A DNA stretch of 64,000 nt from Trichodelitschia bisporula (lineage: Eukaryota): NCBI GenBank assembly GCA_010356995.1, contig ML996705.1, positions 124,001-188,000 of the forward strand, in the 5' to 3' direction. This document shows, one piece after another, positions 16,626 through 50,656 of the stretch. Within the stretch, counting starts at the first letter, position 1. Every line of letters starts with the position of its first letter. Under the pieces are notes generated by a model that did no database searches, was not told the origin of the DNA, and saw only the letters and a program-made list of their open reading frames with translations. The position numbers and the translations under genes are program-made.

Positions 16626-16789
16626 ATGTGACTGTGCGCACCGCCTCTTGGCGGGAGGGTCGCAGTAACGCAATGGTTGAGTGCTAGGAAGAAATGTAAC
16701 GCGAGGAGGATAGCGTTCTGATCATGAGCGTAGGCTAGCAGAAGGAGAGACCGACGACTTATCAAACAATGCGAAGGCATACCGCATAA

Positions 16790-17035: not shown

Positions 17036-17220
17036 AAGTCACTTTAGGAAAGTGCCTATCCTTAGCACGGAGGGCCGTGCGGGATGGCGAGATCCTATTC
17101 GTTCCTAAGCTCATTGCGTATGACATCTTTCCTTCTACCGAGGCGTAATGGAGAAGCAGGCCCATGTGTGACGTTCTTTCTTGTACGGCGTACCTCTCCG
17201 AATCCGAACCGTTGGAACGT

Positions 17221-17484
17221 TTATCCCGTCGTGCCCGTGCGACCGCCGCTCACCCTTCTTGCAACTGGGTCAGCCACGCCGACCATCACAGCCTTAGGCA
17301 CCAACCACAGCCTCGTACTTTTGCCTCGTCTCCGTCTGTACAGCGCCAGCTGCTTAGGAATCCGATCCCGTCACTCGTTCGTCTCCGAATCGACGTGCTT
17401 AACCATCAAATCCGACTTCTTAGAAGATTCAATCGATAACTCGTCTCCGTCCAGCTGTATGAAGCACAAGAGCGCCGACCCCAC
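17221..17484 (-). pseudogene. MGSxLSC micro-protein family, copy 5 (GTG start, in-frame TGA)
   Basis: (V)GSALLCFIQLDGDELSIESSKKSDLMVKHVDSETNE*RDRIPKQLALYRRRRGK; intron-like GTACGA..GCTGAC..CAG is retained. Confidence 0.6.
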
Positions 17485-17814
17485 CCGTGGCTGTAATCCC
17501 GGTCGAAGCAACGCAATGGTGAGGATGCGAAGAACAAATGTAATATGAGGAGGATAGAGTTCGCGATGATAAGCGCTGAATAACTGGAAAAATGAAACGG
17601 CGCATAGAGGAAGAAGGGAAAGATATGTAGTTGGTATTCCTCGGGTATAGATCCCACACGAGCTGCCACTAACGGCCACCTAAATGAAATCGTGGCGCCT
17701 CTCTCCACTGTGCAGGGTATCTTTAACTGTGGATGGGGAGAACTTCTTACTGCCTTGGACCCCAACCAGCGACAAGCCCATTGCATTACACAAACTCTTC
17801 CGGCGGATGCACCC

Positions 17815-18630
17815 ACATGGATGACCATGGCGAACATGTTGTTAAATTTCTCTTACTTGACGCGAGTTCATACGGTATCCTTCCCAAGCCCATCGTGTGT
17901 GGACATTCTTCATCACACGCGAAAATCCCGAACTCCGACAACCTCGAAGTCAACCGGCATTTCCACAGACGCCAACACGGCGAAGGACCAATCGACGGCA
18001 GCTGGAAATGTCAAGACATCTACCCCGCGACGAAGGCCGGGGCGAACAAATCGTAGCCCCGTCAAGCTGTCCTCCCTGACAAACGCCGACTATCCGAATC
18101 CCTCTCCGAGCCCGCAGCGTCGATGAAGCTTCCCTTTTTTTTGTATGCAGCCTTTCCATCCGCGTGCGAAAGTATTGCGATACAAGGTGTGGTTCTGTGT
18201 GGCGGTTTGGTGGGGTCACGATTTATTGGCTCGGCCCTGTGAAAGGATCAGCCACAACGTCCCTCAGCCTTGAGCACCGGCCATGGCTTCGTCCTCAGTT
18301 CTCAAGACATACCTCATCGTGCTCGTCTCCGTTTGCGCGATACCGGCGACCCGCAAACCCGGTCCCGCCATTCATTCGTCTCCGAATCGACGTGTTTGAT
18401 GAAATCCGACTTCTTAGGAAACTCGATATCCATGGACAAGTCATCTCCGTCGAGCGGTGCGAAGCATGAGAGCGAAGACCCCATCTGTGGCTGTGCCCCC
18501 CTCGCAGTGATGTAATGGTGAATGATGTGAAGAACAAATGTGATGGGAAGACAATGGAGTTTGCGATGAAAGTACTAGATAGATAGAGGAGAGAAACGGT
18601 GCATGGAGAAAGAAGGGAAAGATATACTCA
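17815..18630. repeat. Segmental duplication unit A (paralogous to ~19445-20520)
   Basis: Shared blocks GTATCCTTCCCAAGCCCA, GACCAATCGACG..AAATGTCAAGACA and TATCCGAATCCCTCTCCGAGCCCGCA, then the micro-gene and its CT-rich leader. Confidence 0.8.
18314..18484 (-). CDS. MGSxLSC micro-protein family, copy 6 (56 aa; stop just before the conserved donor)
   Basis: MGSSLSCFAPLDGDDLSMDIEFPKKSDFIKHVDSETNEWRDRVCGSPVSRKRRRAR*, followed by GTATGT..GCTGAT..CAG. Confidence 0.6.
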   Translation of the reverse strand: MGSSLSCFAPLDGDDLSMDIEFPKKSDFIKHVDSETNEWRDRVCGSPVSRKRRRAR

Positions 18631-19444
18631 TGGCTTATCGGCTATACTGGATGCGACTGGGCGCCGATGTTGTGTGTCTAGCGTAGAAGACCCTTGCGCA
18701 CACAGTGGAGGCGCCTTTAACGGGCGCGGGAAGAGGTCTTGAACGGGCGCGGGAAGAAGGGTAAACTGGACCCCTGCAGGCCAAAGGCCAATCACAAAAG
18801 GTGCCGTCTGCACCCGTGTGGGAGAGGTTGTAATGTGGCAGCCAGCCACTACAACCCGATAGGTCCACAACCGTTTCTGTGTCCCAAAGACCGAGGAACA
18901 AACAAGGCGTACTACATTTTGCCTTCGTGACAGACTTTGCCTTTGCATCAGACGTGCCTTCGCAACTGCAACGGTATTCAAAAAAGGTCGTTCCTGCGGC
19001 GCATTGGACCTCAGCCGATGCAAACACAGAGCCCATTGGTGCGAAGCCGATACATGCGACGTAGATCAGCTGGGGCGTGGTGACTTTCACGGTCGGTCCA
19101 AACGGAACCAATTAGGCGCGGCCTTCAAGCCGTTACGAACCATACAACCGATTGGGCGCGACCTTCAAGCCTCCGCGAACATAGACCTTGGGCGCGGCGA
19201 CTCTCCAGCCCTTAACTCAGTCGTAGCTGTACTTGGTCCAAGGGCTTAGCGGGAATTCGTGACCATCTCCGCGAAAATAACGTAGCCGTCTCTTGCTAAG
19301 CCTTTTGCGGAGATAAGAAGCAGGGACTATTGGGAAGCGGGGGCGGAAGGCGGCCACGACTTTTTAGGGTATGCCTTGGTCCATTAGACCTCAACGAGCG
19401 ATAGATCAACTGTATTTACACGAACTTGCTCTGCAGATGCACTC

Positions 19445-20520
19445 ACAAGCCATGACTACGGCGAACAGATTGTTGAACTTTTTTCCTTCTTGATGCGAGC
19501 TGATACAGTATCCTTCCCAAGCCCACGGTAGTCAACCGGCACCTCCACCGACACCAACACGACGAAAGACCAATCGACGACATCCCGAAATGTCAAGACA
19601 GATATCCTCGCCAACCAAGGCCTGGGCGAACAGATCGTGGCCTCCCTCAAGACAAAATACGAAGCGCGATATAAGGTACAACCCGCCTGCCAATGGACAG
19701 CAAACCATCTAACCCAAGCCTGCAGTCTTCCGCAGCAAGCAAGTCACCTTTGTTGCACACGCTGCTGGCGGCGTACGGATCCGTACTCTCGACCTCCCTA
19801 CCTAAAACTCCTCAAGCACCCACCTACAAACCCTCAAAGCACCTGCATGCTGCTGGACAGCAAGCGGCAATACCGTGGCAGGTGCCTGTTACCCGTAAGA
19901 TGCCCGTCCTAACGAACATCAACTATCCGAATCCCTCTCCGAGCCCGCAACGTCGACGAAGCCTCCCAGTTGTTTGTATCCAGCCTTTCCTTCCACGAGC
20001 AAAAGTATTGAAATGCTCTAACAAAACATTAGGCTTGTGGTTCAAGGTGTCGTTCCATGTTGCGGTTTGACGGGGTCTCGCTCGGCCCTTGCCCTGCCAC
20101 GCCTGCCTACAGTGCGGAAAGCATCAGCCACGACGTCCCTCAGCCTTGAGCACTAGCCACAGCTTCGTCCTCAGTTCTCAAGACATACCTCGTCTTCGTC
20201 TGTACGATACCATCGGCTTGTAAATCCGATCCCGTGGTTCATTCGTCTCTGAATCGACGTGTTTGACGATATCAGACTTTTTAGGGAACTCGATATCGAT
20301 AGACAAGTCCTCTCCGCCGAGCGGTGCGAAGCATGAGAGCGCAGACCCCATCTATGGCTGTGCGGCCCGTCTCTGGCCGGGAGGCAGCGACGTAATGGGG
20401 AGAATGCGAAGAATAAATGCAATAGAAGGATGGTAGAGTTTGCGATAAAAGCGCTGGACAGATAAAGGAGAGAAACGGTGTATACCGACATGGAGAAAGA
20501 AGGGAAAGATATCAGCTTAT
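19445..20520. repeat. Segmental duplication unit B (paralogous to ~17815-18630, with ~250 bp extra near 19640-19895)
   Basis: Colinear similarity with unit A, including the YPNPSPSPQRR block at 19924 and micro-gene copy 7. Confidence 0.8.
20042..20351 (-). CDS. MGSxLSC micro-protein family, copy 7 (two exons, apparently intact)
   Basis: MGSALSCFAPLGGEDLSIDIEFPKKSDIVKHVDSETNEPRDRIYKPMVSYRRRR|GRRGRARAERDPVKPQHGTTP*; predicted intron 20107-20188 (GTATGT..GCTGAT..TAG). Confidence 0.65.
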
Positions 20521-21430
20521 GGGCTCTGCTAAAGTACGAATAATGTAACCGGACAAAAACTGCGGAAATAAGATCTTTGCGGCGGCGTCTAGCCAATAAG
20601 CGTACTCAGCGTCGACGTACCCGCGATGCGGCCTAGATGCGGCCTATCCTTGTTCACAATATCTGCCCTGTTGGTTTAAGAAGCAAAGGGTGAGGCTGAA
20701 GCGGTCTAGCGTAACTTCCATTGCACATGAAGGATTTGCCTTTTTGTTGTATGATGCAAAGGGAGTGCGGAACGGTTGGAGTCTACTGATTGAAATGGTC
20801 CCCCAGACCTACCGGGTTGTAAGCGGGAGGCATGTCTATTGGATTATCTACGTACTGAACATTGCCGGTCCTTGGTCGGTAAATCCTTCATGAAGTGATC
20901 TTTACGCTAGACCGCTTTCTGTGACAATCCACCTTTGAATCATCAAATACCGTAGCCGTAGTTCCATCTCAGCGATAATTTTAGCACCGCGACAGTGCGA
21001 TACCGGCGACGACTTACGGAGGTAGTCAAAGGCCGTTTAAATCTGGCGTAACTGTCAATCGACAGCGGTATGATTCCTCTTCCAACCCGGCACTCGGTTG
21101 TCGCTAGGCACTTGGCGCCAGAGCTTGGCGTGAAATTCGTAGCCTGTCCCCGAAAAGATTGTAGCCGGGTCTCGCTAGCACTTTTGCTGAGCTCGAAGCA
21201 GGGACTATATCAGGGGCGAGGGGGCGGGGGCAATGACTTTCCCACCGGCCCTCGAATCTCAGTAGCCATCACGATCGATATCTCGGCATATTAATCCGCA
21301 AGACTTGAGTTCACATCATTCTCCTGCCAACCGGCGCACCAAACAGCCAACTATCATCCCTCGCAATTACACCGCGCGCTCCGTAGATCAAGACAAATGT
21401 GCCTTTTTCTCTCACCCTCCAGCACCCCCC

Positions 21431-22949
21431 TCATAACTTCTTCAACCCCCTAAAAATCGCCCTCACCCCCTCCGCCCCCGCCCTCCCCTTCTCCCCCCCA
21501 ACAGCCCCCTCCACCTCCCCAATCCTCGCAAACGCCTTCGTCTCCAGCACCTCCAGCACCCTCCGCGTATACTCAAAACTCCCCATCCGCTCCATAAACG
21601 CAATAGCATACCGCTTAACATCCTCATCCATAGTCCGCTGACGCAGGATATTCAGCAACGTAAGATCCGACGCATCGGCGCGGATGGCGTGGAGAATGGG
21701 GAATGAGAACTTGCCCTCGGTCAAGTCCTCCGCCAGCCCCTTGCGCGCCGTATACGTCTTCGAGCTCAGATTGAGCAGGTCGTCCAGGATCTGGAAGTAG
21801 AGTCCGATGGCCGAGACCAGCGGCACGCAATCGAGCTTCGCGCCTTGCTCCGCGAGACGCGCGGCGACAGGCGAGCACGCCTGCATCAGACGCACGGCGA
21901 GCCGGAAAAGGCCGCCTGTTTTGTTGGCCACCATTTGCAGGTAGGCCTCCTCGGTGGGACACGTCAGGGTGTCGCGCCAGAAGACGTCCATGCCCTGGCC
22001 GCGGTGGAGGTTAAGCAGCTCTTCGATGAAGATGGGGATTGCCTCAGGGGTGCCCAGCGCGGTTAGATCGGCTAGTGCGAGGAAGTAGACGTAGTTGGCG
22101 CTGTTGATTGTCTGGGCAGTGCCGAAGATGTTGTGTGCGACGGGGACACCGCGGCGCAGGTGCGATGAGTCTTCGACGTCGTCGACGCTGTGCGGAGCTG
22201 CTGTTAGCATCTTTTGAGGCAGAACTTGAAGCGCGGTATTACGAAAGGAAATGGGTGACGAACAGCAAGCTCGCCGTGTGCAGCATCCCCACCACACGCG
22301 TGATGGTCGCCAGTTCCGCCGCCGGCACCTGCAGCCACTCGTTAAAGGCAGCAATGAGCTGCGCGCGCACATCCTTGCCAGGATGACCGTAGAGATAGTG
22401 AAAGGGAGCAAGGAGGATAGTTTCGTTCTCGGGCGTCCACGACGGGCTATACTGTTCTATGATGTCGTCACCGATGGTGGGCGGGGGCGTGGTCGGGCCC
22501 CGGAAGGGCGGTGCACTAGCGGGTAGGGCTGTAGGGAGAACGTGCATCGTCAGCAAAATCCGACCTGGCAGCATGCCCCGCGGGGCCGCACCGCGCGCAT
22601 CGTGGAGCGGTTCCTCACCCTCGCTTTCGCGCGCCTTGCCCTTGCCCGCGCTGGAGCTCGCATGCTCGTTCATGTCGTGTCTGGAGCGGGTATTCCGCCT
22701 CGAGCGACTCGCTGCGGGAGCCGGATCGTGATGTGATGATTCGGGCGCCGTGCTGTCGGGGTATCCGCTGCGCTTGGAGCTCATGCGGCTGGGGACGGTG
22801 TGGTCCGTGGCTGCGCTGGAGGGGATGGCGAAAGGGGCAGCTCCAGAACCGGACAGTGTGAGGCGGTGAGAGGACGAGCGGGGAGGGATAGTTTTGAGGG
22901 GGAGTTGGGTGATTGGAGGGGGGGTGGATGCCTCGGCCGTGGTTGCCAT
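21431..22949 (-). CDS. BTS1: Geranylgeranyl pyrophosphate synthase (BTS1/al-3 type)
   Basis: Motifs PGKDVR, LHTASLL|VDDVED (FARM, joined across intron 22188-22263), LRRG, GQGMD, KTGGLF, FQILDD (SARM) and [11 protein letters not shown]. Long Ser/Pro-rich N-terminal extension. Confidence 0.93.
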
Positions 22950-31527: not shown

Positions 31528-31677
31528 NNNNNNNNNNNNNNNNNNNNNNNNNNNNNNNNNNNNNNNNNNNNNNNNNNNNNNNNNNNNNNNNNNNNNNNNN
31601 NNNNNNNNNNNNNNNNNNNNNNNNNNNNNNNNNNNNNNNNNNNNNNNNNNNNNNNNNNNNNNNNNNNNNNNNNNNNN
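31528..31677. other. Assembly gap (150 N)
   Basis: Run of N following a poly-C tract. Confidence 1.
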
Positions 31678-37249: not shown

Positions 37250-39214
37250 ATGGCCCCAATAACCCCCCTCTCCAACACTCCCCAACCCTCTCCCTCCCCC
37301 TCCTCCTCACCCCCATCTCGCCCTCTATCCCCCCCGCAAATCGCCGCCCTCACAATCGGCAGCATAGCCTTCATCATCCTTGCCGGCGGCCTCATCACCC
37401 TCGCCTACACACTGCGCAGGAACCGCCGCCTCCAACGGCAACGCGAAATCGAAGATACGGGACTGCTCTTCTGGCCACCCCCCAAGAGTCCGGGGAAACG
37501 CGCTGCGCCCGTTGGGGTGGTCGAAGGACGAGAATCCCGCGCCAGCAGGGCAAGTCGAGCGAGCAGAGCGAGTCGGGCGAGTAGGGCGAGTCGAGGGTCC
37601 CGGGGTTCGGTTGCCTCACGCCTATCCGTCGCCCTCGGCTTCAAGGAGCCGGCAAGCTCGCCGCCTCTGCCCCGAACATCGATCGGAGGCCGCAACGCCG
37701 GCGTGCCACTCGGCCCGCTAAGCCCACCGCTACGCTCACCACCTCCGAACACCTCACATGTCCCGCTGAGCCCGCTGCGATCGCCGCCCCCGACCCACCC
37801 CCCGATTTCCTCTCTAAACCCGCCCACGGCTCCCGCACCCGCATACTCCCCACAACTGCCCCCGGCGCCTTACAACGCGACAGGCGCGTACGTCATGCCC
37901 GGCGTTCTCCCCCCCACCCCCCTCCCGCCCGGCCCGGCTCCCGCCCCGGCTGGTCATGGTGCGGCGCTGCCCTGGCCGAGGTATTACCCCGTGCAGCCTG
38001 AGTTACAGGCTACTATTCATCCGGCGCTGAGGGCGATTCCGGACCCTGGGCCAAGGAAGCAACAGCATCAGCTGCAGAATAAGCAACAACATGTCCAGAA
38101 ACAGCAGGCTCTGCATCAGCTAGCGCAGAATCAGCTGCAGGCTCAGCAGCATCCCCAGGCTCAACATCAGCAGCATGCTCAATATCATCCCCAGTCGCCA
38201 CACCACCTCCAAGCCACCCCCCACCCGCCCTTCATCCCCTCCCGCTCGCCCATCCCTCCTCCCCCTCCAACACCACCCCCTGCCTTCGCCCCACCCACCA
38301 TCCCCATCGGTGTAGCCCGCACAACCGACCACCGCGCCCCCGTACCCGTCCCGCGGTCCGACCCGGCCATCGGCAGCCGCGTCCTCAACAAGCACCAACG
38401 CACCCACGCCCCCCCGTCATACGCATCTCTCGGCCGCAGCGCAAGCACGGCGTCCCTGCCCGTGTTTGGGGGCGGGTACGTCCCGAGCGCGAACGTGTCC
38501 ACGTCCAGCCTCCCCCTGACAACCGTCCCGCCACCCCCGCCCCGTATCGTCCCCGCGCCCGCGAAGAATTGGCGCCGGAGTCGCGTTCCGAGTTTGTCGA
38601 TCCAGATTCCGGGGAAGAGGGGGGCAAGAAAAGTTGGCGGGCTGGCGGGAGAGCCCCAGGCACCGCAGCCTCCTCAGCAACCTCAACCTCATCCCCAACA
38701 TCCTCCACAGCAACAACAACAACCACAACCCAGGCACCCCTCCCGCCAGCCCTCCCAGCACCACGCCGCGCCGCACCCACCCCACCACCGCCCCGCGCAT
38801 ACCCTCTCCCACCCCCGCCCTCACTCCCCCACCTCCTCCCGCGCCAGCTTCACCTCCTTCGAAAGCACCAGCTCCAGCAGCAGCGTGGGGTCCGACGACG
38901 AGGCGGGTCCGGCCAGCGGTACGCCAGCTAGTAGCACAGGTGCCACGCCGCCGACGCCCGGCGGAAGGATGCCAGCTGCGCCCGTGGCGCCGGCGCCGGC
39001 GCGGATGATGTCCCGGCGCAAAGCGCTGAGCCCGGTGATCGAGGCGAGCCCCGTGAGTGCGTTGACGGCCTCGAGTCCGATTTCGGGGCTGCGGTATCCG
39101 CGCGTGCCGAGGAGTAGTGCACAGGCGGTGGCGAGGAGTCCGAAGATTGGGGGTGGTGGGGGGGTGCTGACGCCGACGGTTTGGGGGGGGGAATTGGTGC
39201 TTAGGGTTGAGTAG
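37250..39214 (+). CDS. Single-pass membrane protein with a long Pro/Gln-rich low-complexity tail
   Basis: 654-aa ORF. N-terminal TM helix (IAALTIGSIAFIILAGGLITLAYTL) followed by RRNRR, then (ASR)n, poly-Pro and Gln-rich tracts. Confidence 0.65.
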   Translation: MAPITPLSNTPQPSPSPSSSPPSRPLSPPQIAALTIGSIAFIILAGGLITLAYTLRRNRRLQRQREIEDTGLLFWPPPKSPGKRAAPVGVVEGRESRASRASRASRASRASRASRGSRGSVASRLSVALGFKEPASSPPLPRTSIGGRNAGVPLGPLSPPLRSPPPNTSHVPLSPLRSPPPTHPPISSLNPPTAPAPAYSPQLPPAPYNATGAYVMPGVLPPTPLPPGPAPAPAGHGAALPWPRYYPVQPELQATIHPALRAIPDPGPRKQQHQLQNKQQHVQKQQALHQLAQNQLQAQQHPQAQHQQHAQYHPQSPHHLQATPHPPFIPSRSPIPPPPPTPPPAFAPPTIPIGVARTTDHRAPVPVPRSDPAIGSRVLNKHQRTHAPPSYASLGRSASTASLPVFGGGYVPSANVSTSSLPLTTVPPPPPRIVPAPAKNWRRSRVPSLSIQIPGKRGARKVGGLAGEPQAPQPPQQPQPHPQHPPQQQQQPQPRHPSRQPSQHHAAPHPPHHRPAHTLSHPRPHSPTSSRASFTSFESTSSSSSVGSDDEAGPASGTPASSTGATPPTPGGRMPAAPVAPAPARMMSRRKALSPVIEASPVSALTASSPISGLRYPRVPRSSAQAVARSPKIGGGGGVLTPTVWGGELVLRVE

Positions 39215-39364
39215 GATTGTATTATATTGAAGATTGTATGATTGTATGAGTATGTTTTGGCTGGGAGGGTAGATTGGTGTTTTGGATGTGGCGTTTTGGA
39301 GGATTGGGTTGCATTTTGAAGTGACCGGGTGCGGTGGTGTACTGAGTGCAATGTCAGCGGTTCT

Positions 39365-39491
39365 TTTGTGTTGTTACCCAGGCCTGTGTTGTTACCCAGG
39401 CCTGTGCTGTTACCCGGATCTGTGCTTTTACCCGGGTCTGTGCTTTTACCCGAGTCTGTGCTGTTACCCGGGCCTGTACTGTTACCCGGAT
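39365..39491. repeat. Seven 18-bp tandem repeats (CTGTGYTKTTACCCGGRY-like)
   Basis: Directly visible in the sequence; the minus strand would read as (PGNSTD)-like hexapeptides. Confidence 0.85.
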
Positions 39492-39884
39492 CCATTGCCT
39501 TACCTCCGTCATGACTTTCATCTTCTCAGATGCTGCGCGAACCGCCCCAGTATCGGTGGAAACCCGTTCACAGAACCCGCACATGAGCAACCCACATCGC
39601 GATGGCGTACAGCAAGCAGTTCACTCAGGAACAGGTGTGACCGCATCGCAAATACCACACAATCGATCCCCGGAAGCTCACTTTTCACTCCGTGACCATC
39701 ACACTCCACTTCCCACCGCACTCACAGGCACTCACTTTTCTCTCTGTAACCATCACACTCCACTTCCCACCGCACTCACGGGCGCTCACGCGAATCATAT
39801 AATGTCCCACATCTGCGGTAGATAAGAAACGATGGCCTCGCAAGAATCCTTTCCTCCCCGTACACCTTCCCCTCGAACGCAAAG

Positions 39885-40258
39885 ATGGGAGCAAACGCCC
39901 CGGTCCAGTATTTGGAAAAAAAAAGATGGTGGACCTCCGGGGCGCCGCCATCCTGATCGAGATGAGGCTTTCTGAGCGCCGGCGCACCAGGTCCACGAGG
40001 CCTCTGGCTGGATTGTCGATGGCGGAAGTGAGAGCGATGGCGATTGAGGAGGGCAAGTTTGCCGCGGAGCTCGAGATGGAAATTGCGCTGCTGCGAGAGG
40101 CGATTGGGGAGCTTGAGCGGCAGATTGATGAGCGCTTGGTTAGCGGGTTGGAGGGGTTGAGGTTGAGTCCTGAGCAAGATGCCAGGGTGGCGGCGGCGAA
40201 GGATGACCTGGCGGAGGTTAGTGAGAAGTTCGGGAGCTTGAGTGTGAGGGATAAGTGA
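39885..40258 (+). pseudogene. Small coiled-coil family, copy 1 (frameshift in an A9 run, or a sequencing error)
   Basis: ATG 39885 gives MGANAPVQYLEKK; the frame then shifts to MVDLRG..KFAAELEMEIALLREAI..LEGLRLSPEQDARVAAAKDDLAEV, which aligns end to end with 40838-41260. Confidence 0.65.
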
Positions 40259-40837
40259 GAGCTTGTTTCTGGCGTTAGATCGAATTTAAATCATGGATTT
40301 TTTCGAGTATTTTGGAAGAGTGTGAATGCAGTGATCTTAGTGATGTGCGGAGTGTTCAATCGGCCTACCGGGTAAAAATGCCTGGCCCTCATCGGGCCGT
40401 TCGCTGATCGGCCTAGTAAGTGTACGGGCACTAGTCTTATCCCTATAGGCCTCAAGATGGCGATGCCGCTGGGAATCCGAAAGCGCTACCTATAGTAATA
40501 CGTTAGGGTGGTGATAGAGGGCGGCTGAAGCTCGTCAAGCAAAACCCTGGTATGGAGCCCGGCTGCGCTTTACGGCTAAGGGGAGGTCTACCTAGAGGGA
40601 CGATCCGATTACGCCAGGGTGCCTGTACGGCGGCCCAGGTGCGTTCGTCGCCTCCGTCCGGACAGTTTCAGTCCGTTTGGTACCCTGCTCACTTTCCTCT
40701 CCACCATCCCCATATCCCCTTTCCACTGCACTCAGAAACGCTCACTCTCATTACAAGGTTTTCCGCATCTGCGGCATACAAGACGCAATAGCCTCTCAGC
40801 AAGTTGTCTTCTAGAACCTTTGCACTGAACTGCCAAG

Positions 40838-41260
40838 ATGGGAGCTAACGCATCCATCGAGACTCTCGAGGAGAAGCTTGCCGAAATCCGTGGCGAGGTC
40901 ATCCTTCTCGGGGTGAAAACGTCCGAGCGCTCATCCGTCGAGGAAATAGAAGTGTTGATTACTGAGGTCAAAGCGAGGGTGGACAAGGACGCCAAATTCG
41001 AGGCGGAGCTCGACTGGGAAATCAGGTTACTCTGCGCGATCATTAATATTCTCGAGCAGAAGATCGAAGAGCAGCGTCTGGCGCAGCAGCTTGAGGGTAT
41101 GCGCTTGAGCCCTGAGCAGGAGAAGCGGGTAGCGGCAGCTAAGGATGAGATTGCGGAGGTGAATGATAAATTGGCTTCGCTGAAGGTCCGGGATTCGGGT
41201 CGTCCGGAAGGCGATGGCTCGGGGCGCCAGGAAGGCGATGGCTCGGGGCGCGCCGGCTGA
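40838..41260 (+). CDS. Small coiled-coil family, copy 2 (140 aa, MGANAS start)
   Basis: Heptad-patterned E/K/L-rich ORF; clear paralog of copy 1 with shared upstream and downstream flanks. Confidence 0.7.
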   Translation: MGANASIETLEEKLAEIRGEVILLGVKTSERSSVEEIEVLITEVKARVDKDAKFEAELDWEIRLLCAIINILEQKIEEQRLAQQLEGMRLSPEQEKRVAAAKDEIAEVNDKLASLKVRDSGRPEGDGSGRQEGDGSGRAG

Positions 41261-42234
41261 TATGCAGGTCCGATGGGATCAAACGGATGCGACGAGTGAG
41301 AGGCAGCTTTAGATCGAATGTAAATCATGGATTTGGAATATTTGAAAGGGTGCGAATGCAGTGACCATGGTGATGTGTAGAGTGTTCAATCGGCAGCCGG
41401 ATAGTCCAAATACCCGGTTCTCATCGGACCGTCTGCTAGTCGGCTGGTAAGTGGGCGGACTTCCTCCGACTGTTTAAGTAAACGTGTTGAGAGCTAAACT
41501 TTAGCACCAGTTCGGGACCTGGGGCTTATCGGTCTCCTATTGACCATGTCATCCCATCGTCCCTGTCGTCCCATCGTTCTCGTTGCACCGTGGATGTAGA
41601 TGGATGGAGCATTGTTGTTCCAGGAAGGAGCATATTAAGGGACATGATGTAATCAGCACATGACAGAAGGAAGGGAGCAAAAGAGGATACTCGGCATTGT
41701 TTATTTACTCTCAAGAGTCTCTGACTCTCTTCTCCTCTCTGTGTTTACTTCAATCTTCGGTTTGCCTACTTGCCGTCGCATTCCTTAGAGCATTCACTTC
41801 CATCAGTTGTCTTGTCGTCGCGTCGTCCTATCCTTCCAATCGTTCCATCATTCCTATCGTCCTCAAGCTTGGCAATGCCACTGTACGCCAAAACTGCTAC
41901 GTATGGTGGTGTAATGGCGTGAATGGAGACAGTTGAAGCTCATTGACCAAGATCTTCTCCAGAGCCCGTTGGCTCCGCTCAGTCGGATTTGATTTCATTG
42001 GGCACACTGCTCACTTTCCTCCCCGCCATCTTCATATCCTCATTTTACCGCACCCACAAGGGCTCACCGCTTGATTACTTTCGCGCCGTACTCGCAAGTA
42101 CCCATACCCGAAATCACATTTTCCACGCATCTGACATATAAGGCAGGTAACACCCCCGCATTGGGCTTCCATCATCACCTCTCTTCCAAACGCCACGATG
42201 GAATCCATCCTCACCTTTTTTTCGGAGCGCCGCA

Positions 42235-42744
42235 ATGGAAGCCAACGATTATGCCGGGAGCATTGAGAGCCTCGATAAAGCCGTTGAGAATCTCAAGAGT
42301 TTCCTGGCCAAAATCCGGCCCCAAGTTGTTCGCAAGGAGAAGTTTATGAACAGCATTACAGCCGTCTCTGCGAAGAACCTACCGTGGACCGTGGGTCAGT
42401 TGCGGATTATGGCGCAACACATGACGCTCAGGAGACTCAAATCCGAAATGGCCGACTCATTGAAGACCACGCGCGTGCTCCTTTGGGTCTACGAGGATGA
42501 GCTGGTCGATAACATCGCCCTCAAAAACATAGAAACGGCCGAGGCAGCGAGGTGTAGAGCGGCCGTTAGCGAGCAGGAACAACTCTGGGAGAAATTATTG
42601 GACCTTCCCTGTCCCAACTCTGATGGCTCAGGCGTCGATGGCTCTTTGCGCGCCAGCCGGACTTGTCCTTACGGTCTTAAGGACTCAACAGTGGCTAGGA
42701 GGCCTGGTGACAAGAGAGAGTTAGGTTTGAATCGAATTGAATGA
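42235..42744 (+). CDS. Small coiled-coil family, copy 3 (divergent, 169 aa)
   Basis: MEANDYAGSIESLDKAVENL..., predicted helical. Shares the upstream CTCACTTTCCTC..CCATC block and the downstream AAATCATGGAT..GAATGCAGTGAC block. Confidence 0.55.
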   Translation: MEANDYAGSIESLDKAVENLKSFLAKIRPQVVRKEKFMNSITAVSAKNLPWTVGQLRIMAQHMTLRRLKSEMADSLKTTRVLLWVYEDELVDNIALKNIETAEAARCRAAVSEQEQLWEKLLDLPCPNSDGSGVDGSLRASRTCPYGLKDSTVARRPGDKRELGLNRIE

Positions 42745-43621
42745 AATCATGGATCAGGAACATATTTGCGGCGTCAGAATGCAGTGACGTTGATGATGTG
42801 CAGGATTCAATCAGATCGCCGGGATCGCGTCGGGACGGCCCGCTATGGCCGGGTATACCCGTACGCCTGGGCCTCGTCAGACCGTCCCCTAATTGGCCCA
42901 AGTATGAGGTGGAAGGAAAAGGCGTCACATACAGAGCTTAGAATAAATATCAGCTTGCAACAGCGCAAAGGAATTTAATAGACTTGTCAGCCGTGGTCTC
43001 AGCATCTAAGTGTATCTACAAACCGAGTTTTGCATTTATCTATCGCTCGTTGTTGTCGCATTGTCACCGTGTAGCTGGGGGTCTATTTTTGGAAGCGGCG
43101 CGCTCAAGGTTGTGCGCGACACTTCTTCCCATCGCGTGCCCTCCAGAGCCTACATTGAAAAGCAGCAGCATCAGCTATACCAAGATAAAATTTTGGCGAG
43201 CAGCCTGCTACATTGAATAAAGCCGGGAATCTTTGAGATCAAGTTAACTAGCCATGTTTTACGTTTGGTCCTGCCTGTTCACCTCCCACGGAGCTAAAAT
43301 AATACTCATAGGCAATGGGGGTTGGCATGACGCTTTCCATCGGCTCTTGGACGTGTTTGTACCATAGCCTTTCAGTTGGGCAACAATCACTCGGGCTGTC
43401 TGGACCGCGGTTCAGGTGCGTCATTGGAGATCCGTCCATACCGATGTAATCTGATTAGATACCCTACTCACTTTATTCGCCGCCATCCTCACACCTCCCA
43501 TCCCACCGCGATCACATGCGCTCAGTACCCCAATCACGCCATTTCTGCTTCCAAGGTATAAACGGCCGATGAACCCCTTAGAACCGATACCATCCACACG
43601 CCTGCTGCCATATTCACCACG

Positions 43622-43984
43622 ATGGGAGCCTGCAATTCCGTCGAAAGCCCCCAGAAGTCCATTGAGAACCTGGAAACCCGCATTGCCGAGCAGCGCGCGG
43701 AACTGGTTGCCTTCCAGATCGAGATGCTGGACATCTCGCGGGAAGCCGCTGCGGGTAAGCCCCCGACAGTGAAGATGGTTGAGGCCCGTAAATACATGGC
43801 GGACCTCAACTATAAGATATGGCAGGCGCGCATGTTCATCAAGTTGCGGAAGAAGCAGCTTGAGGGGCGCCTGCGCAATCGAGAGGGAGATGCGGTCGAG
43901 GCGGCTCAGCAGCATGCGAGGGTGATGGCGGCCAGCAACGAGATCAACGATCTCGAAGATATGCTGACCGGCCTGCGCATCTGA
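43622..43984 (+). CDS. Small coiled-coil family, copy 4 (120 aa, MGACNS start)
   Basis: SIENLETRIAEQRAELV matches SIETLEEKLAEIRGEVI, and RVMAASNEINDLEDMLTGLRI matches RVAAAKDEIAEVNDKLASLKV. Shared flanks. Confidence 0.65.
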   Translation: MGACNSVESPQKSIENLETRIAEQRAELVAFQIEMLDISREAAAGKPPTVKMVEARKYMADLNYKIWQARMFIKLRKKQLEGRLRNREGDAVEAAQQHARVMAASNEINDLEDMLTGLRI

Positions 43985-45037
43985 GATACTGCCCTCAGGA
44001 CCTAATAGAGATGGTAAGTAGGCGCTAATTTAGACGGAATAAGATTTCTGGGTTTGTAACCTTTTCAGAGGTGAGAACGCAGTGACGTTGGTGATATAAC
44101 TGTGCCCGAGGCTGGGATGCCGCAAGGCTGACTGCAGGGGTTCCCTGGTGTTGACGGATCCTCGCATGTTGTTGGAGTACGGAGTATATAAAAGCCTATT
44201 GGCTGAAGTCCCTGTAGAATTCATCTAGGAATATATACCTTGTCAGCTTGCTAAGACATCTAGACTGACGTCAGTGGTTTGGCTTGTTTCCATGGCACAC
44301 GGTTTCGTAGCTTGATTTTCCTCCACATGTGAGAATGCAGGGGTGCTGCGGGTAGATCCGCTGTGGCTGAGATCTGTGGATCTTTGTTGTCACGGGAATA
44401 AAGGGAATGTCTGATGTTCTTTGTCTTCACTGTTCTGCTTTCTCTGTGAGGCTGGTCTGTCCCATGTGCTCACCTAACACTGATCTAGTTGCCGCCCGCT
44501 AGCTAGCCGCGAAGGTCGACTCCCACTCAATAAAAGCTCCACCTTCAAATGTTCTCATGCATCTTATACCGGCTACCGTCAAGGCGTCTTGAAGCCATTT
44601 TCCAATGGCCATGATACCGACTGGGATTATCCAGGGCTATGGCGAAATGGTCGTCACCGTCATCGTCCGTACACACGTCCAGATATAGTGGCCAAATTTT
44701 TTTCAAGCGGCCTTTAATCATGAATCGAGGAAAGGAACAGCGGTGCTCGAACGAAGAGTGATCCCTAACGCTCACGATGTATACACAGCACCTCGCAAAT
44801 CTCCCTCCATGGCTCACGCCCCCCATCCGTCGCGTCTTCTGGACTTCTCAAACCACCTATACAGCTCACTACCCTCCATCCGTATCCCCTTTAAATGGCC
44901 CGCCCTCTCCCTCTTCCCAACCCACACACCTTCTCGGACCGCATCAAACCCCCATCGCAGTTCGGATCAACCACTCTTCCAAGAACGCAGAATCCGCAAC
45001 GTCCGCAATCTTGTCAGACTCCGCTTTCAATTCGGCC

Positions 45038-45400
45038 ATGGATGTTATCGATGAGCGCCTTCAAGGCCAGGCCCTCTTATGGGCCTCGCTTTGGGCCTTG
45101 AGACGGTCACTGGGCGACGTCCGCTCCGCCGATCTTGTATCTGCCTATGCTGCGACAATGCAGCTGAGGAACAACATCTTGGGGTGGAGGCGTTTAGCGA
45201 TGGTGGAGCAGGGAGAAGTTGACTGGAGGCTGAAAGATCCTGCCATCGTCGCTATGGAAAGGATGGAGAGAGATCAGCTGGTGGCGCTTGAGATGGAGAT
45301 TGTTATACTCCAGCTGGAGATTTGGGCTGCAACTAATAGTAGCCCGCCGGCTACGGAGAGTCACGGTTCTTCGGAGAGTTCTACCCCTAGTAGTACTTGA
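45038..45400 (+). CDS. Small helical ORF, possible distant member of the coiled-coil family
   Basis: MDVIDERLQ..LEMEIVILQLEI. Upstream GCTCACT..CCATCCGTATCCCCTTT resembles the family upstream block. Confidence 0.4.
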   Translation: MDVIDERLQGQALLWASLWALRRSLGDVRSADLVSAYAATMQLRNNILGWRRLAMVEQGEVDWRLKDPAIVAMERMERDQLVALEMEIVILQLEIWAATNSSPPATESHGSSESSTPSST

Positions 45401-46444
45401 GGCCGGAGCGTCCGCGCAGGCGTTTGACGGCGCCTCGGCGTACGATCACTGAGCCCGAGGGGCAGGGAGAGGCCGACGAAGCCTGTGGGGCTGATGATGA
45501 CGCCGTTGAGTCCGAAGAGGAAGAGGCTAAAGAGGATCCGTCGGAGGATATTACGCTAGTGATCCTGGGGGGGAGTGGCTCTGCTGTGGCTGTGGCTGGT
45601 GATCTTCGCCGGGCGAGTAATGCTGAGCGAGTTTAGAGGGTTATAAAAACGGTCATAGAAAGCAAAAAAAGAGTTCGGGTCACGATCAGAAAAATGTGAT
45701 GTGATGTGATACATGAACCAAATCTAGCAGGTGTTCAAGGCGGAGCATAGGGCGCGAGGCCGACAGCTCGGTCGGGAAGCGAAACGCAGCAAAGTAAACT
45801 GACAATGCCGTTTCCCATCTTCAGAATATCTCAATGTGTCTGCCACACCCGTGTACCACTGTTAAAAAACACTATACCGCTTTGTCCTCCAAGACTAGCT
45901 GGCTTTCCCCCTCGATATCACCTAGTGTATTCGATGTCCATGGGCATGCTTCATCTAATCAACGTAACGGCTTCGTGTTCTCGCCATGGCCGCCATTGCA
46001 AATCTCTTGGAAGGTAGCAGAATAATCACAAATTTTGAAATCCGAGTGTACCATTGTACCGATACAGTGGTCGACAAAGACCGCCACCCCAGTCTTACTA
46101 TTGGATTCACTGGTCTCTACAATGCTCACTTATAACTATCATGCGCCCCAGTCACTACCAGGCCCGCCTGTCACTCTTTCGACTACTTGTTGCTATCCCA
46201 CTCACTTCTTCTATCACTACTATGCTCACGTGTCACAGTCATGCCAACATATTACGACCATGCCCGCCGTTAGCTTCAGTCACAATCTCGTTCCATACAC
46301 CGTCCCATTATCGAATCACCATCGTCCACCTCAACCAGTACTCACATCAACAATATACATCGACCATCAGTAACAGCCTTTACGACTCTGTCGCCATCCC
46401 ACAACAATTACGATATTATACAAACAGCAATCCATTTCAACACA

Positions 46445-47473
46445 ATGTGCATTAAGCAAGAGCTCAACGGAGGAATTTCTCTGCTCGCTAATTGGTTCAG
46501 GGACAACGAGTTGGTGTGGGCAGCGGGGAGTTTGACACTTGACGGCGAAGGAAAGTGGCCCACCAGGAAGCCGAAGAATAAGGCGCCCACCTTCAAGCCA
46601 AAGAAAAAAGCGCCCACAAAGAAGACGAAGGAAATCGAACGTCCTCTGGTCACGAAGAAGCCTTCAGAGAAGGTGATATCGATCCGGGATGTCTCCCCTC
46701 CGCGCAGCATCGTTAAGAGACCGGGTAAGTACGTTGGAAGCCGGAAGGCGTGGAGGTGCGCAAGAACTCCTTCTCAAGTGCGCCTCTGCAATACTTGCGT
46801 CACAAACTCGGATCTTTTGAGGGCAATTGACCGCAGACTCACTAGGGCCCCTCAGTTGAAGCACCCAATGTTTGGGGCCTGGTATGAGCGGGTTCACTGG
46901 AGAGAGTTTTACAACCAGTGGTGTCCGCCCATGGAGTTAGACATACCCGGATTTGCGGATCTCGACGAGCATGGCTGCTTGCCCATGGAGGTGGACAGAC
47001 CTGAGTTTGCGGATCTCGACCAGTATGGTTGTCTGTGCATGGAGTTGGACAGACCTGGATATGCGGATCTCAACGAGTATGGCTGCCTGCCCATGGAGGT
47101 GGACCACCCGGTGCTTGCGAGCCTCGACGACTATGGCTGCGAGCCCATGGAGCTGTGGGAGGCTGCGCCGCTCGAGGGGTCTAGCTGCACACCCGTGGAG
47201 TCGGCTGCGTACAAAGCTGCATCCGCGAAACTAGACAGGATGGCACCCACGAAAAGAGTCAGGTTTGCAGACATGATACGGACCGAGGTTATATCCACGA
47301 CGGAGCCCGTGGCTGCACCCCCGATGGAGCCCGTGGTTGCACTCACTATGGAGCCCATGGTTGCACCCACGATGCCTACGTGGGGGGCCGTCGATGCCTA
47401 CGTGGGGGCCCGTCGATGCCCTTATGACAGATTCGGACTGGGATATATAACTGGACAGCCCATAATCTGCTGA
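46445..47473 (+). CDS. Orphan protein with 18-aa GCLPMEVD tandem repeats
   Basis: 342-aa ORF with a Lys-rich N-terminal part, 4-5 repeats of (P)xFADLDEyGCLPME(V/L)D, a KRVRF motif and three 8-aa EPxxAxxM repeats. Confidence 0.55.
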   Translation: MCIKQELNGGISLLANWFRDNELVWAAGSLTLDGEGKWPTRKPKNKAPTFKPKKKAPTKKTKEIERPLVTKKPSEKVISIRDVSPPRSIVKRPGKYVGSRKAWRCARTPSQVRLCNTCVTNSDLLRAIDRRLTRAPQLKHPMFGAWYERVHWREFYNQWCPPMELDIPGFADLDEHGCLPMEVDRPEFADLDQYGCLCMELDRPGYADLNEYGCLPMEVDHPVLASLDDYGCEPMELWEAAPLEGSSCTPVESAAYKAASAKLDRMAPTKRVRFADMIRTEVISTTEPVAAPPMEPVVALTMEPMVAPTMPTWGAVDAYVGARRCPYDRFGLGYITGQPIIC

Positions 47474-48305
47474 CCGGATTAACAGGAATTCAATTAACAC
47501 CCGGCAGTTTTGCATTCTCCCGGATCAGCCGTGCAATGTGATGTGATGAAAGTGACCATAGCCCAGCACGGATGGACAGCTGTGAGAACGGAAAGGACAT
47601 GCTATGAGGAAGTGGTACTGTTCATTCCTGCCGCACAGAGGTTGAGTCCATCGGCGATCCAGGAGATGTATTCGAATGCAATAATGGCCAGATGCTACGT
47701 ACAGTCAGCGCAGAGTGTCCAAAGTCGCCACTGACGCGTATGATGCTAGTTTCAACGTGCTGCATGCTCAGTTAACCGACTTCATAGATGCAGCTAGAAC
47801 TTCTTTAAGATTCGGTGTCAACAGTTGGTCTAATCTTATTTGACGTTAGAATAGGCTTTGCTCGGTGGCTGTACTGCAGGTGCCGGTGCATATGCACTCA
47901 ACAAGCATGCGGTACGGAGGCCACAAAGTCAGTCCAGCACTCCCCTTGCAGATCTGAGCCACGTGCGCCGGCTCGGTCCGAAGTGTGGGGCGTGTTGCAC
48001 GGTACAAAGGCGACGAGTGGTCGAGGCTTTGAGTTGTGAAATAAAGGAGTAAAGGTGTGAAACCTGGTCAGCAGAAGTTAACAAAGGTGTGAAGTCTAGT
48101 CAGCAAAAGGTAATAAAGCTGTGGCAATGACAGCATAGTAGTGAACTCCAACAGACACAAAGTGACAACAGGAATCACCCTCCGTCACAATGACGATGAG
48201 TAAATAAACTGGAATCCTCCCATCTCAACTCATTTTACGTCTTATCGCCGCCTGGCTTCTAGTTGAACCATTAACTTTTCGCAGAATTCTCAGACCTCAC
48301 CTACC

Positions 48306-48809
48306 ATGGCTTTTCCAACGAGAGGCTCCGGCTTTGCGCAAGAGCAGCTTAACGCGAAGCTTGCTGCTATCTGGTGGGATATTGCCACCGAGGAGATCGA
48401 GTCGGAAATCAAGGACCTAAAGGCAAAAGGGTCTAGCAATTGGTTTCCGCTGAAGATGCTTCAGGACAAACTGAAAACTATCAAAGATAACCACTCTCTC
48501 GCAAACGCCGAGCTCGCAATGACGCGCCTCACTGTCAACGAGAAGGACGAAGTTGAATTGCCCAAGATCGTGGCTTCACTTATAACGGTTGAAGACCGCA
48601 CCAGGGAAACTAGGGCGCAGATATTATACGAGGAGGCTCTTGCCCAGTCGAGAAGCTTGACCTCCGAGAGAGCTCTTTCCAGGAAGGCTGCGCAGGGCCG
48701 AAATGTCAAGATTTGCATGGCCCTGCAGAAGTATGAAACGGAGATCAGACTCCTCCGGGAAGAGATCGAGATGGGGGCTTGCATGGATGGCCTTCGATGG
48801 ACAAGGTGA
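48306..48809 (+). CDS. Orphan coiled-coil protein; may continue into 48779-49180 through a frameshift or intron
   Basis: Good start context (CTACCATGG) and a 167-aa helical ORF. ETEIRLLREEI resembles the family motif EMEIALLREAI. Confidence 0.5.
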   Translation: MAFPTRGSGFAQEQLNAKLAAIWWDIATEEIESEIKDLKAKGSSNWFPLKMLQDKLKTIKDNHSLANAELAMTRLTVNEKDEVELPKIVASLITVEDRTRETRAQILYEEALAQSRSLTSERALSRKAAQGRNVKICMALQKYETEIRLLREEIEMGACMDGLRWTR

Positions 48810-50656
48810 GTTTTCCCCCAATACCTAGTGCCAGCTCACGCTTCGGGTTGGGTGATATCACCACTAGGATGAGGAGCCTTTCGGTTGACGGGGAGGGTTT
48901 TGATATCCCAATGCCTGACGCCAGCTTAAGCATTGCCCCAGTACCTGGCTCAAGGTCCATGTTTGACCCAATACCTCCCACCAGGTCAACCTTCGCCCTT
49001 CCCCCTCCCCCCCCCCCCCCCCCTGCTCCCCCCCCCACCTCACTCTTTGACCCAAAAACTATCCCGCTATGCGTTCATGAGGCTAGGATGAAGGCTCTTG
49101 CGGTCTCCACGGTAGCCACCAGTGGCTGGACGGAGCCCAGCGACGGGATCGACAACCTCGAGGCCAAGTTAAAAGCATAAGAGCCAACCCCTGCTGGACC
49201 AGGTCTCCCGCAACGATAGACAGCATCGAGGGTGAGAGCTCAAGTTTCGGCGCCTCCAGCGGCAGGACCGGGTCCGGCGTTTCGACGAGAAAGCGCCCGT
49301 TTTACATGAAGGCGAAGGATAGGCCTATGGTAAGGCCAGTAAGGGGAGATGACATCTTGATGAGGAGAGTCGACCGCAACAGGGGGGTGGCCAGAGGCAG
49401 GTTCGTTGCGCAGCTCCGGAATCTTCCTTTTACGGCGGCCGAGGGCGCGGTAGACGTGATCGGTCAAGCCCGTGGCATGCTAAGGCGTTTGACTAACGGA
49501 GTTAGACTACTCTTTAATAGGGAATAAATATCAAGAAGAAACATACCTACTTGCACTGCAGCTGGTGAAGTGAACTTTGGAGTGACTGTGCTGTAGAACT
49601 AATGTGTCAAGTCCATCAAGAAAATTTCCGGTACTTATACCCGTGACAGGCTGCCGGGTGGACGCTAAAAAAGCCTTGGATAAGGCATGCCCGTAAGACC
49701 TTAGGCAATGTCATAAGATCTTTAGGGAGGCTCTCGTGCTTTCGTTTGGCCCATTGTCTTGCGGTCGCCCGGACAGCTTGACCTCAACAGCAACAGAAGC
49801 GTATGAAACGTGCCAGATTCAAGAGAGTGAAACGCAAGATTAGGCAAGGCGAATATATGCAGTACGCAGCACATCGGCTCTCGGACGGGTCGCCGCAAAG
49901 CCGAGAATCTCAAAGGTGCTGGTGAAGCAGGCGAAATCGCTAGCGACGGGTCGCATTATCGGAGGAAAAATGGATCAAGGGCTGGGTGGAAAAGTCGTGG
50001 GCAGCCCCGCCTGGTAGCCTCTGCATTTTACTTTTGACTTCTAGCTTGTGATATTGATTATACCTCAGTGATGCGGATCACCCCTTGACGAACTCGAGCC
50101 ACAGCCCCTAAATAGTGAAATTCCGCATTGAAGACCGATGAGGCCGACAGCATTTTGGGTCATCTGGCGGGTGGAATCACTATCCATTCCGCTGAACGTC
50201 TTGCTCAGATATGTGCCCGGTGCCATTTATTGGGCGAGACTTCCTCACGTGGTATCTGATACCGCTTGATCGGGCACCATTCTCAGCTGACTGTTGCTCA
50301 ATTGGGCATAAAGTATCGGGAATTACTCCTTAAAACTCTCTGCGGCTTCATGTGCTAACCCCCGGACATTACAAAAAGTACCGCCCGGTTGGTGTGCGTC
50401 TCCAACCCAAGCCCCGGAAAGGCGGCGCCTGCCACGAGACCAATCGAAGCCGGAGCATCAAAGATCACACTTGCGCAGCCCAGAGTCCCAGAAGATACCA
50501 CATACTTTACAACAAAATCACAGCCCGAACGCAGCGAAACACAAGCATGGACGGTCCCTCACACATGAGCTCAAGCCGACATCGTCGCTCACTCCCCAGA
50601 CCGCAACACCACCTTATAAGCGACGCTCGCTGCTCTAATCTTCCCTCCCTCAAGCA

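Follow-up and report, generated by a model that had tools for sequence, protein, structure and literature searches.

The window analysed in this work is a stretch of 64,000 nucleotides (nt) of Trichodelitschia bisporula DNA (contig ML996705.1, positions 124,001 to 188,000), and it contains four tandem units, U1 to U4, that each carry a small open reading frame (ORF) between two conserved blocks. We propose with moderate confidence that these units represent an old, lineage-restricted tandem family of small proteins, predicted to form three-helix bundles, that is held under one regulatory programme through conserved promoter and 3′ modules.

Organisation of the array

The four units lie on the same strand between 39.6 and 44.2 kb of the window. 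Their ATGs are located at 39885 (U1), 40838 (U2), 42235 (U3), and 43622 (U4), all on the plus strand, and the distance from unit to unit is 950-1400 nt. In each unit, an upstream block of about 180 nt leads up to the ATG of a small ORF, and the ORF is followed by a downstream block (about 150-200 nt) and a spacer. The downstream block starts within about 45 nt of the stop codon; that of U3 already overlaps the final codons of its ORF. The spacers between units are 200-550 nt long and cannot be aligned between units. The features of the array, with protein lengths in amino acids (aa), are as follows.

39677-39884, plus strand: U1 upstream block, with a 54-nt tandem duplication (39677-39730 and 39731-39784, 91% identical) and the TATA-like TAGATAAG at 39819-39826, 66 nt before the family ATG
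39885-39925, plus strand: U1 ancestral start MGANAPVQYLEKK, aligned with the U2 start by the repeat finder, out of frame at the A9 run
39926-40258, plus strand: U1 main ORF, 110 aa, library protein P0003
40270-40430, plus strand: U1 downstream block, AAATCATGGAT .. GAATGCAGTGA .. GTGATGTG .. GTTCAATCGGC .. CTCATCGG
40666-40837, plus strand: U2 upstream block, with the TATA-like CATACAAG at 40775-40782, 63 nt before the ATG
40838-41260, plus strand: U2 ORF, 140 aa, MGANAS start, library protein P0001
41304-41459, plus strand: U2 downstream block, found by the repeat finder, self-blastn, and the block profile
41988-42197, plus strand: U3 upstream block, with the TATA-like CATATAAG at 42135-42142
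42198-42266, plus strand: U3 out-of-frame ORF of 22 codons, its ATG 63 nt from the TATA-like box
42235-42744, plus strand: U3 ORF, 169 aa, MEANDY start
42726-42925, plus strand: U3 downstream block, overlapping the last codons of the ORF
43445-43621, plus strand: U4 upstream block, with TATAAA at 43557-43562, 65 nt before the ATG
43622-43984, plus strand: U4 ORF, 120 aa, MGACNS start, three-helix model
44028-44197, plus strand: U4 downstream block, GAACGCAGTGA .. GTGATAT, the most diverged of the four

The preliminary description of this DNA had reported tandem same-strand small ORFs with shared upstream and downstream blocks, and this is borne out for four units by the repeat finder, by self-blastn, and by comparison with shuffled sequences. 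A possible fifth copy that it had placed at 45038 is rejected: the ORF 45038-45400 has an hhalign probability of 0.4% and neither a match to the hidden Markov model (HMM) of the family nor flank blocks. Profiles of both flank blocks, run against the 64 kb, identified no unit beyond U1-U4 except the 54-nt internal duplication of U1. In a six-frame scan of the window with the family HMM, the four matches with E<1 were U1-U4, and no further copy was found.

Conservation of the flank blocks

The repeat finder recovered the upstream block as repeats D2, D4, and D7 and the downstream block as D3 in all four units, plus D5, D9, and D14. Self-blastn was performed with 39600-45500 as the query and the whole window as the target. 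The downstream blocks of U1 and U2 are 77% identical over 154 nt (E 5e-24), the upstream blocks of U2 and U3 77% over 70 nt (E 8e-9), the downstream blocks of U2 and U3 77% over 70 nt (E 1.4e-5), and the upstream blocks of U1 and U2 68% over 171 nt (E 5e-5). The same search of the array against the window gave zero alignments of coding regions. Semi-global alignments scored z values against shuffles of 3.4-14.3 for the upstream block and 4.2-27.6 for the downstream block. The similarity of the blocks between units exceeds chance.

In the upstream alignment, CTCACTTT is invariant and is followed by motifs similar to CCGCCATC and CCACCGCACTCAC; the TATA-like element comes next, at a near-constant distance of 63-66 nt from the family ATG. 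The downstream alignment exhibits the motifs AAATCATGGAT, GAAYGCAGTGA, and RTGATRT, together with GTTCAATC and CTCRTCRG in U1-U3.

The Jukes-Cantor distances of the whole flanks of about 180 nt are 0.55-0.71 upstream and 0.35-0.87 downstream. For the coding sequences, the Nei-Gojobori synonymous distance (dS) is 1.2-2.8 or beyond correction and the nonsynonymous distance (dN) is 0.45-0.90. The flank blocks evolve two- to four-fold slower than synonymous sites and about equally fast as, or slower than, nonsynonymous sites; the slower ones are the downstream block of U1/U2 (0.35 vs 0.45) and both blocks of U2/U3. Since the flanks are far less diverged than saturated synonymous sites, constraint acts on these noncoding blocks. 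This agrees with the conserved regulation that had been proposed earlier, and the blocks may well be regulatory.

The preliminary description had also held that the flanks are better conserved than the proteins. This stands for the core blocks and the diverged pairs. In 40-nt windows of the U2-U3 and U2-U4 alignments, the blocks reach 60-80% identity and the coding sequences are mostly at 30-47%. Spacers drop to 25-45% in windows of this size. The claim was overstated for the upstream block of U1 and U2, which at 61-67% is no better than the coding sequence (64%); only the downstream block (72-78%) exceeds it in this pair.

Concerted evolution, in which gene conversion between neighbours homogenises flanks that have no function, was weighed against constraint. 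Copies that lie in tandem on one strand, 950-1400 nt apart, lend themselves well to conversion, and a mild incongruence is present: the upstream blocks group U2 with U3 (77% over 70 nt), and the coding sequences and downstream blocks group U1 with U2. However, the identity between units stays at 82% or less in every 40-nt window, a result that speaks against recent gene conversion, and sharp tracts of high identity are lacking. The discrete motifs at fixed distances, such as the TATA-like box 63-66 nt from the ATG, form a footprint pattern that points to constraint rather than recent conversion. Conversion would also have had to act repeatedly on both flanks and to spare the coding sequence between them in all four units. 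We regard concerted evolution as very improbable.

The downstream block does not exhibit RNA structure. Its fold z values range from -0.92 to +0.68 over both strands of the four copies, and its consensus fold energy is -4.45 kcal/mol without stable or covarying structure. Rfam returned only two sub-threshold rows at chance level, both elsewhere, and no match in the downstream block; ARAGORN identified 0 tRNA genes. The block was rejected as a small nucleolar RNA, a tRNA, or a relative of short interspersed elements (SINEs), as box-like motifs are not conserved and ARAGORN, Rfam, and folding gave no signal. A role as micro-ORF or coding exon was likewise rejected. On inspection by eye, U4 lacks the ATG in AAATCATGGAT, and the short frames that follow this ATG in U1-U3 are unrelated; U2 carries a stop in the sole frame of the block common to U1 and U3, and the indels of the block are not multiples of 3. 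A scan for bacterial promoters and terminators was set aside as inapplicable to a fungus.

Transcription across U3 and U4

Among the sequencing runs used, X1 is a DNA run. X3 and X4 count as RNA runs only by the guess of the tool and by their spliced joints; the records list none of the runs as RNA. All 10 joints of X3 are absent from the DNA run X1, and 9/10 have canonical intron ends, mostly in the armadillo-repeat gene of the window. The contigs of X3 and X4 were placed outside 39755-41707, which covers U1 and U2, and say nothing on the expression of these two units. The contigs carry no strand. The transcribed features are as follows.

42045-42769, strand unassigned: cover of an unspliced RNA-like contig of run X3
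43594-44187, strand unassigned: cover of a run X3 contig, with 44000-44058 (or 44002-44060) skipped
44002-44060, minus strand: segment of 59 nt skipped in the RNA-like contig, CT..AC on the plus strand and GT..AG on the minus strand

The preliminary description had named a lack of transcription of the ORFs as a point that would count against its reading. RNA-like contigs do cover U3 and U4, but the only splice at U4 is antisense. The U3 contig spans the whole ORF, and its left end lies in 42024-42068, a 45-nt stretch that is repeated in another contig of the DNA and RNA-like runs. That other contig matches 42024-42068 at 95% or more, and both its flanks are absent from the window. Because this match occurs with different flanks in both runs, a close and transcribed copy of the U3 upstream block is present elsewhere in the genome.

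At least one further transcribed copy of this block thus lies outside the window, and this is in favour of the rival view that the blocks are remnants of a mobile or repeat-derived element, whether similar to a miniature inverted-repeat transposable element, a SINE, or a cassette, that had carried or captured the ORF. The motif CACYGCRNTC, which was chosen post hoc, occurs on the plus strand upstream and on the minus strand downstream of the units, and 8 of its 10 matches in the window lie in the array, vs 2.96 expected. The inverted-repeat idea behind this pattern was nevertheless rejected. An unbiased test of the upstream core against the reverse-complemented downstream core gave a summed score of 31, at chance (30.0 +/- 2.5 in 300 shuffles), and neither consistent terminal arms nor an inverted repeat pair that consistently borders the units was found. 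The window search also returned no transposable-element Pfam domain, terminal repeats, tRNA-like element, or further copy, and by depth arithmetic the excess at the 45-mer fits about one extra copy rather than a dispersed family. A repeat origin of the flanks is therefore very unlikely in our judgement, and the match to a transposon gag or accessory ORF that had been named earlier as a refuting outcome was not found in the searches of the window.

The U4 contig skips 59 nt with an ambiguity of 4 nt, and the sole canonical reading of the skip is CT..AC, a minus-strand intron; the ACCT at both of its edges is the reverse complement of AG|GT. This spliced contig accounts for all depth over U4. 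It starts, at its left end, 32 nt past the TATAAA box, the place at which one would expect transcription in the sense direction to begin. A minus-strand gene at U4 was rejected, as the spliced minus reading contains a 55-aa ORF only. A plus-strand GTAAGT..CAG pair at 44014-44068 overlaps the intron of antisense polarity and is not the observed joint.

Coding status and divergence of the ORFs

The plus frame is open for 130-189 codons between stops in all four units, which holds for the plus strand only, and the minus frames of U3 are closed (59 codons or fewer). The G+C content of third codon positions (GC3) is 0.62-0.77 in the array ORFs vs 0.72-0.85 in four other ORFs of the window, three of which have Pfam domains. 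The differences between U1 and U2 are distributed over the three codon positions as 36/35/57 over 105 codons. The main ORF of U1 is 50% identical to U2 at the protein level, the identity between copies goes down to 24-31%, and U3 and U4 have a common N-terminal stretch of 36% identity over 45 residues (E 5e-5 in a single comparison). Across the four proteins, 8 columns are invariant and 23 are hydrophobic in all copies with a spacing of 3-4; heptad-like windows are frequent. The open frames, GC3, codon-position pattern, and hydrophobic columns indicate that the ORFs are real protein-coding sequences with a retained helical core.

The dN/dS is 0.31 for U1-U2, ranges from 0.26 to 0.74 between pairs with the highest value in U3-U4, and is below 1 in all five computable pairs. 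With dS at 1.2 or more, the copies are old rather than recently expanded, and the pattern is consistent with drift that preserves the fold under purifying to relaxed selection; in four paralogs this saturated, such ratios do not speak to positive selection at single sites. The rapid diversification likened earlier to that of conflict loci finds no support in these ratios, in the age of the copies, or in the hydrophobic core that they keep.

The copies differ in their state. U2 (MGANAS) and U4 (MGACNS) are intact, and the reported MGxxxS starts of copies 2 and 4 are confirmed in the ORFs. The motif is kept in these two of the four copies, U1 having MGANAP followed by a frame break and U3 having ME, in which Gly2 is replaced by Glu. 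In U1, a shift of one base at the A9 run 39916-39924 separates the family start from the frame of the 110-aa ORF. This register shift may be a true lesion or a homopolymer error; the DNA run agrees with the A9 run and may be the own source of the assembly. The C-terminal tail of U2 carries a 24-nt tandem duplication (41195-41242) that is read as SGRPEGDG/SGRQEGDG, and a related DGSG stretch is present in the tail of U3 (42636-42657). Within the upstream block of U3, about 38 nt that the other units lack are inserted after 42067. A second similar start region lies 37 nt upstream of the U3 start, and its ATG at 42198 is at the conserved distance of the family from the TATA-like box; the start region of U3 appears to be locally duplicated, about 37 nt apart, and the flank profiles give a second match here at 42205-42248. 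U1, with its frame break, and U3, with Gly2 lost and an out-of-frame ATG upstream, are probably degenerating or non-acylated variants.

The deposited annotation differs from this layout. U1 is deposited as a truncated 110-aa model, and the deposited model P0002 (239 aa) fuses residues 1-105 of U3 to U4 over a gap of about 1 kb (judged by eye). The unspliced contig that runs to 42769 gives the fusion model no support.

These defects raise the alternative of a decaying array, in which the ORFs are relics and the locus yields only non-coding, partly antisense RNA. It would account for the broken frame of U1, for the loss of Gly2 and the upstream ATG of U3, and for the antisense intron in the U4 RNA with its 55-aa minus ORF, and the fused model means that the annotation is no independent support for the genes. 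Nonetheless, although synonymous divergence is saturated, all four plus frames are still open over 110-169 codons, 5/5 computable pairs have a dN/dS below 1, GC3 is gene-like, and the heptad-like hydrophobic pattern is retained with a confident model for U4. We consider decay of the whole array decidedly unlikely.

Predicted fold and search for relatives

The Pfam scan of all five ORFs at E<=1 identified no family that reaches its cut-off (best E 0.013, 16 bits vs a cut-off of 27), in agreement with the earlier statement that no known domain can be assigned. None of the sequences of solved structures matched better than E 0.24. The AlphaFold model of U4 is an antiparallel three-helix bundle (predicted local distance difference test, pLDDT, 83.6; predicted template modelling score, pTM, 0.70) with helices at residues 10-43, 50-85, and 91-118 and a disordered tail at residues 1-9 that contains MGACNS. 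The AlphaFold model of U2 also has three helices (pLDDT 72.6), and a three-helix fold may be common to the family. The homodimer prediction for U4 (score 0.08, mark 0.32) carries no weight either way.

Foldseek gave no match to the U4 model at E<=0.001. Its best superpositions were the syntaxin Habc domain and the cytosolic helices of CorA; the model superposes on syntaxin-1A Habc (1ez3_A) with a Foldseek TM score of 0.72 and a root mean square deviation (rmsd) of 2.4. VIA-align returned a continuous list of generic three-helix bundles with Z from 13.2 to 10.0, under the tool's own bar for helical bundles. In this list, 97-117 residues of U4 were aligned to syntaxin Habc, spectrin/plakin repeat, BAG, GAT, and the CorA/Mrs2 cytosolic helices, but the identity to U4 is only 4-16% (8-24% with Foldseek) and no family stands out. 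None of these three-helix domains occurs alone with an N-terminal acylation tail, unlike U4. The modelled fold would thus be a common arrangement to which no family is assigned, and the likeness of U4 to known three-helix bundles reflects a shared arrangement, not membership, as far as the model goes.

Kinship with ESCRT-III, HeLo/HELL, and MLKL, which had been suggested for comparison, is not borne out. These domains likewise consist of helices only and are small, and myristoylated members exist (Vps20/CHMP6). They have four or five helices vs three in the U4 model, and matches to them were found neither in Pfam nor among PDB sequences. The Snf7, HeLo, and HeLo-like profiles gave no Pfam match at E<=1 in the five ORFs. 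A four-helix bundle of the MLKL type was not recovered, the AlphaFold models of U4 and U2 having three helices each, as models only. ESCRT-III, HeLo, and MLKL are not among the fold-search rows shown for the U2 and U4 models, an absence that excludes no family.

U2 and U4 match the PROSITE-type N-myristoylation pattern G-{EDRKHPFYW}-x(2)-[STAGCN]-{P}, and U1 and U3 fail it. Starts of the MG..S or MGxC type are found in N-terminally acylated peripheral membrane proteins such as G-alpha subunits, Src-family kinases, and yeast Vac8. The likeness of the array proteins to these consists of the start pattern of U2 and U4 and the disordered first 9 residues of U4, and is a pattern match only. Attachment to membranes would be the expected consequence.

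Relatives were searched for in several collections. A profile search of 1.84 billion representative proteins gave 3 matches, each of them a protein of the window itself. With U2, U3, and U4 as queries, word-indexed searches of 5.8 billion clusters yielded either proteins of the window alone or no match. The ESM Atlas gave no usable feature match for U2 and U4, and the neighbours of its low-confidence U2 model are unrelated helical proteins. Metagenome scans with the pattern of the downstream block and with U2 gave no match. Full-text and species-name searches of the literature, judged on titles and the starts of abstracts, returned nothing relevant to the family. The relatives of T. bisporula are probably thinly sampled. 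As far as the searched databases show, the family appears to have no detectable relatives and to be lineage-restricted.

A conflict locus, such as one for allorecognition, a killer/antidote pair, or meiotic drive, would have its proteins under diversifying selection and its regulation constant. Several observations are in line with this: protein identity of 24-31% between copies with invariant core motifs in the flanks, a dN/dS of up to 0.74 (U3-U4), the lineage restriction of the family, a second tandem array of small ORFs with MG starts in the same window, and the antisense transcript at U4. Antisense transcripts are seen for many stage-specific genes. On the other hand, no pairwise dN/dS exceeds 1 and the closest pair is at 0.31, the copies are ancient (dS of 1.2 or more), two of the four look degenerate, and the Pfam and PDB sequence searches gave no match to HeLo, MLKL, ESCRT-III, or a toxin family. 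A conflict locus is in our view an unlikely explanation.

Fungi have lineage-specific tandem gene clusters, for example secreted-effector clusters. The array is likewise composed of tandem, fast-diverging, taxonomically restricted small proteins between conserved genes. Unlike effector clusters, it has no N-terminus similar to a signal peptide, its duplicates are old, and its promoter and 3′ blocks are retained. Unlike a pathogen with effector clusters, T. bisporula is counted among dung saprobes in a listing within PMC7082219.

Proposed history and regulation of the family

In the proposed reading of an old, commonly regulated family, the ancestral N-terminus would have been MGAN.., a glycine-2 acylation motif that U2 and U4 have kept, U4 with an added cysteine. 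The two intact copies would probably be N-myristoylated and membrane-associated. The copies may have arisen by serial unequal crossing-over, with adjacent copies most alike, and the proteins would later have drifted with the hydrophobic core retained. Selection would have kept the 5′ promoter module (CTCACTTT .. CCGCCATC .. CCACCGCACTCAC, with the TATA-like box 63-66 nt before the ATG) and, immediately behind the stop codon, a 3′ module of about 150 nt. Both modules are probably sequence-specific protein-binding elements that would subject all copies to one expression programme, which is probably tied to certain conditions or stages, with antisense RNA at U4 as a possible part of it.

Several points weigh against this reading. 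The U2 model is unpacked (pTM 0.32), and myristoylation is predicted from the sequence pattern alone for two of the four copies. The representative protein library hides relatives that are more than 50% identical to a listed protein. The strength and mode of selection are poorly measured, with dS saturated and orthologues lacking. For the blocks we have no transcription factor or RNA-binding protein to propose, and the missing RNA structure of the downstream block fits protein binding but is not proof of it. The family or its promoter may be larger than the window shows, given the 45-nt copy outside. The U3 contig starts at 42045, upstream of the TATA-like box at 42135, which misfits a simple promoter; this start is cut by the repeated 45-mer. 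Sense expression of the copies is a prediction: the RNA over U4 is at least partly antisense, and since the sole splice of the array is on the minus strand and its contig holds all U4 depth, this RNA may be wholly antisense.

A more specific and speculative version, to which we give little credence, takes each unit as a self-contained switch gene. The conserved promoter, 3′ module, and antisense RNA would hold a membrane-anchored bundle in check during vegetative growth of the hyphae and let it act at a single stage, either of development or of an encounter with non-self, and the bundle surfaces would diversify as recognition or killing specificities. If this were true, the array would represent a new, structurally minimal fungal conflict or recognition family, unrelated to HeLo, MLKL, and NLR-associated domains.

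Other features of the window

The window is fungal and encodes a SNF2/HIRAN/RING helicase, a polyprenyl synthase, a fungal-specific transcription factor domain, and an armadillo-repeat protein. Further features are as follows.

13197-20483, minus strand: second, larger tandem array, 5-7 copies of blocks of 30-180 nt at a spacing of about 720-1950 nt
13213-13404: short ORF of the second array, MGSILSCF start
15704-15904: short ORF of the second array, MGSVLSAF start
18635-19036: short ORF of the second array, MGSVFASA start
31528-31677: run of 150 N, a gap in the assembly or a stretch that was withheld
37250-39214: proline-rich ORF of 654 aa, overlapped at its 3′ end by the ORF 38821-39495
39349-39510: seven overlapping copies of an 18-nt tandem repeat, read on the minus strand as GNST/GKST repeats within the ORF 38821-39495
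46445-47473: ORF of 342 aa without a Pfam match, with several repeats of a motif like GCLPMEVDRPEFADLD

The flanks of the second array exhibit no match to the block profiles of U1-U4. Both tandem arrays lie in regions of lower G+C (14001-22000 and 40001-50000, 0.50-0.54), vs mostly 0.57-0.63 in the rest of the window.

Significance of the array

The value of these findings lies mainly in the correction of the annotation, in which one model is fused and another truncated, and in the regulatory module, which is well defined and open to testing. A taxonomically restricted tandem family is itself familiar, the finding opens no long-standing question, and the surprise for specialists is modest. What is unusual is that the noncoding blocks outlast the saturation of synonymous sites and have diverged at most as fast as the proteins. 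The small helical bundles that bear acylation motifs would gain a family without detectable relatives. If the units are indeed an old family under one regulatory programme, the array would be a natural footprinting experiment, in which discrete motifs have been kept at fixed spacing despite synonymous saturation, and these motifs would be candidate cis-elements in a barely studied order of dung-inhabiting Dothideomycetes.

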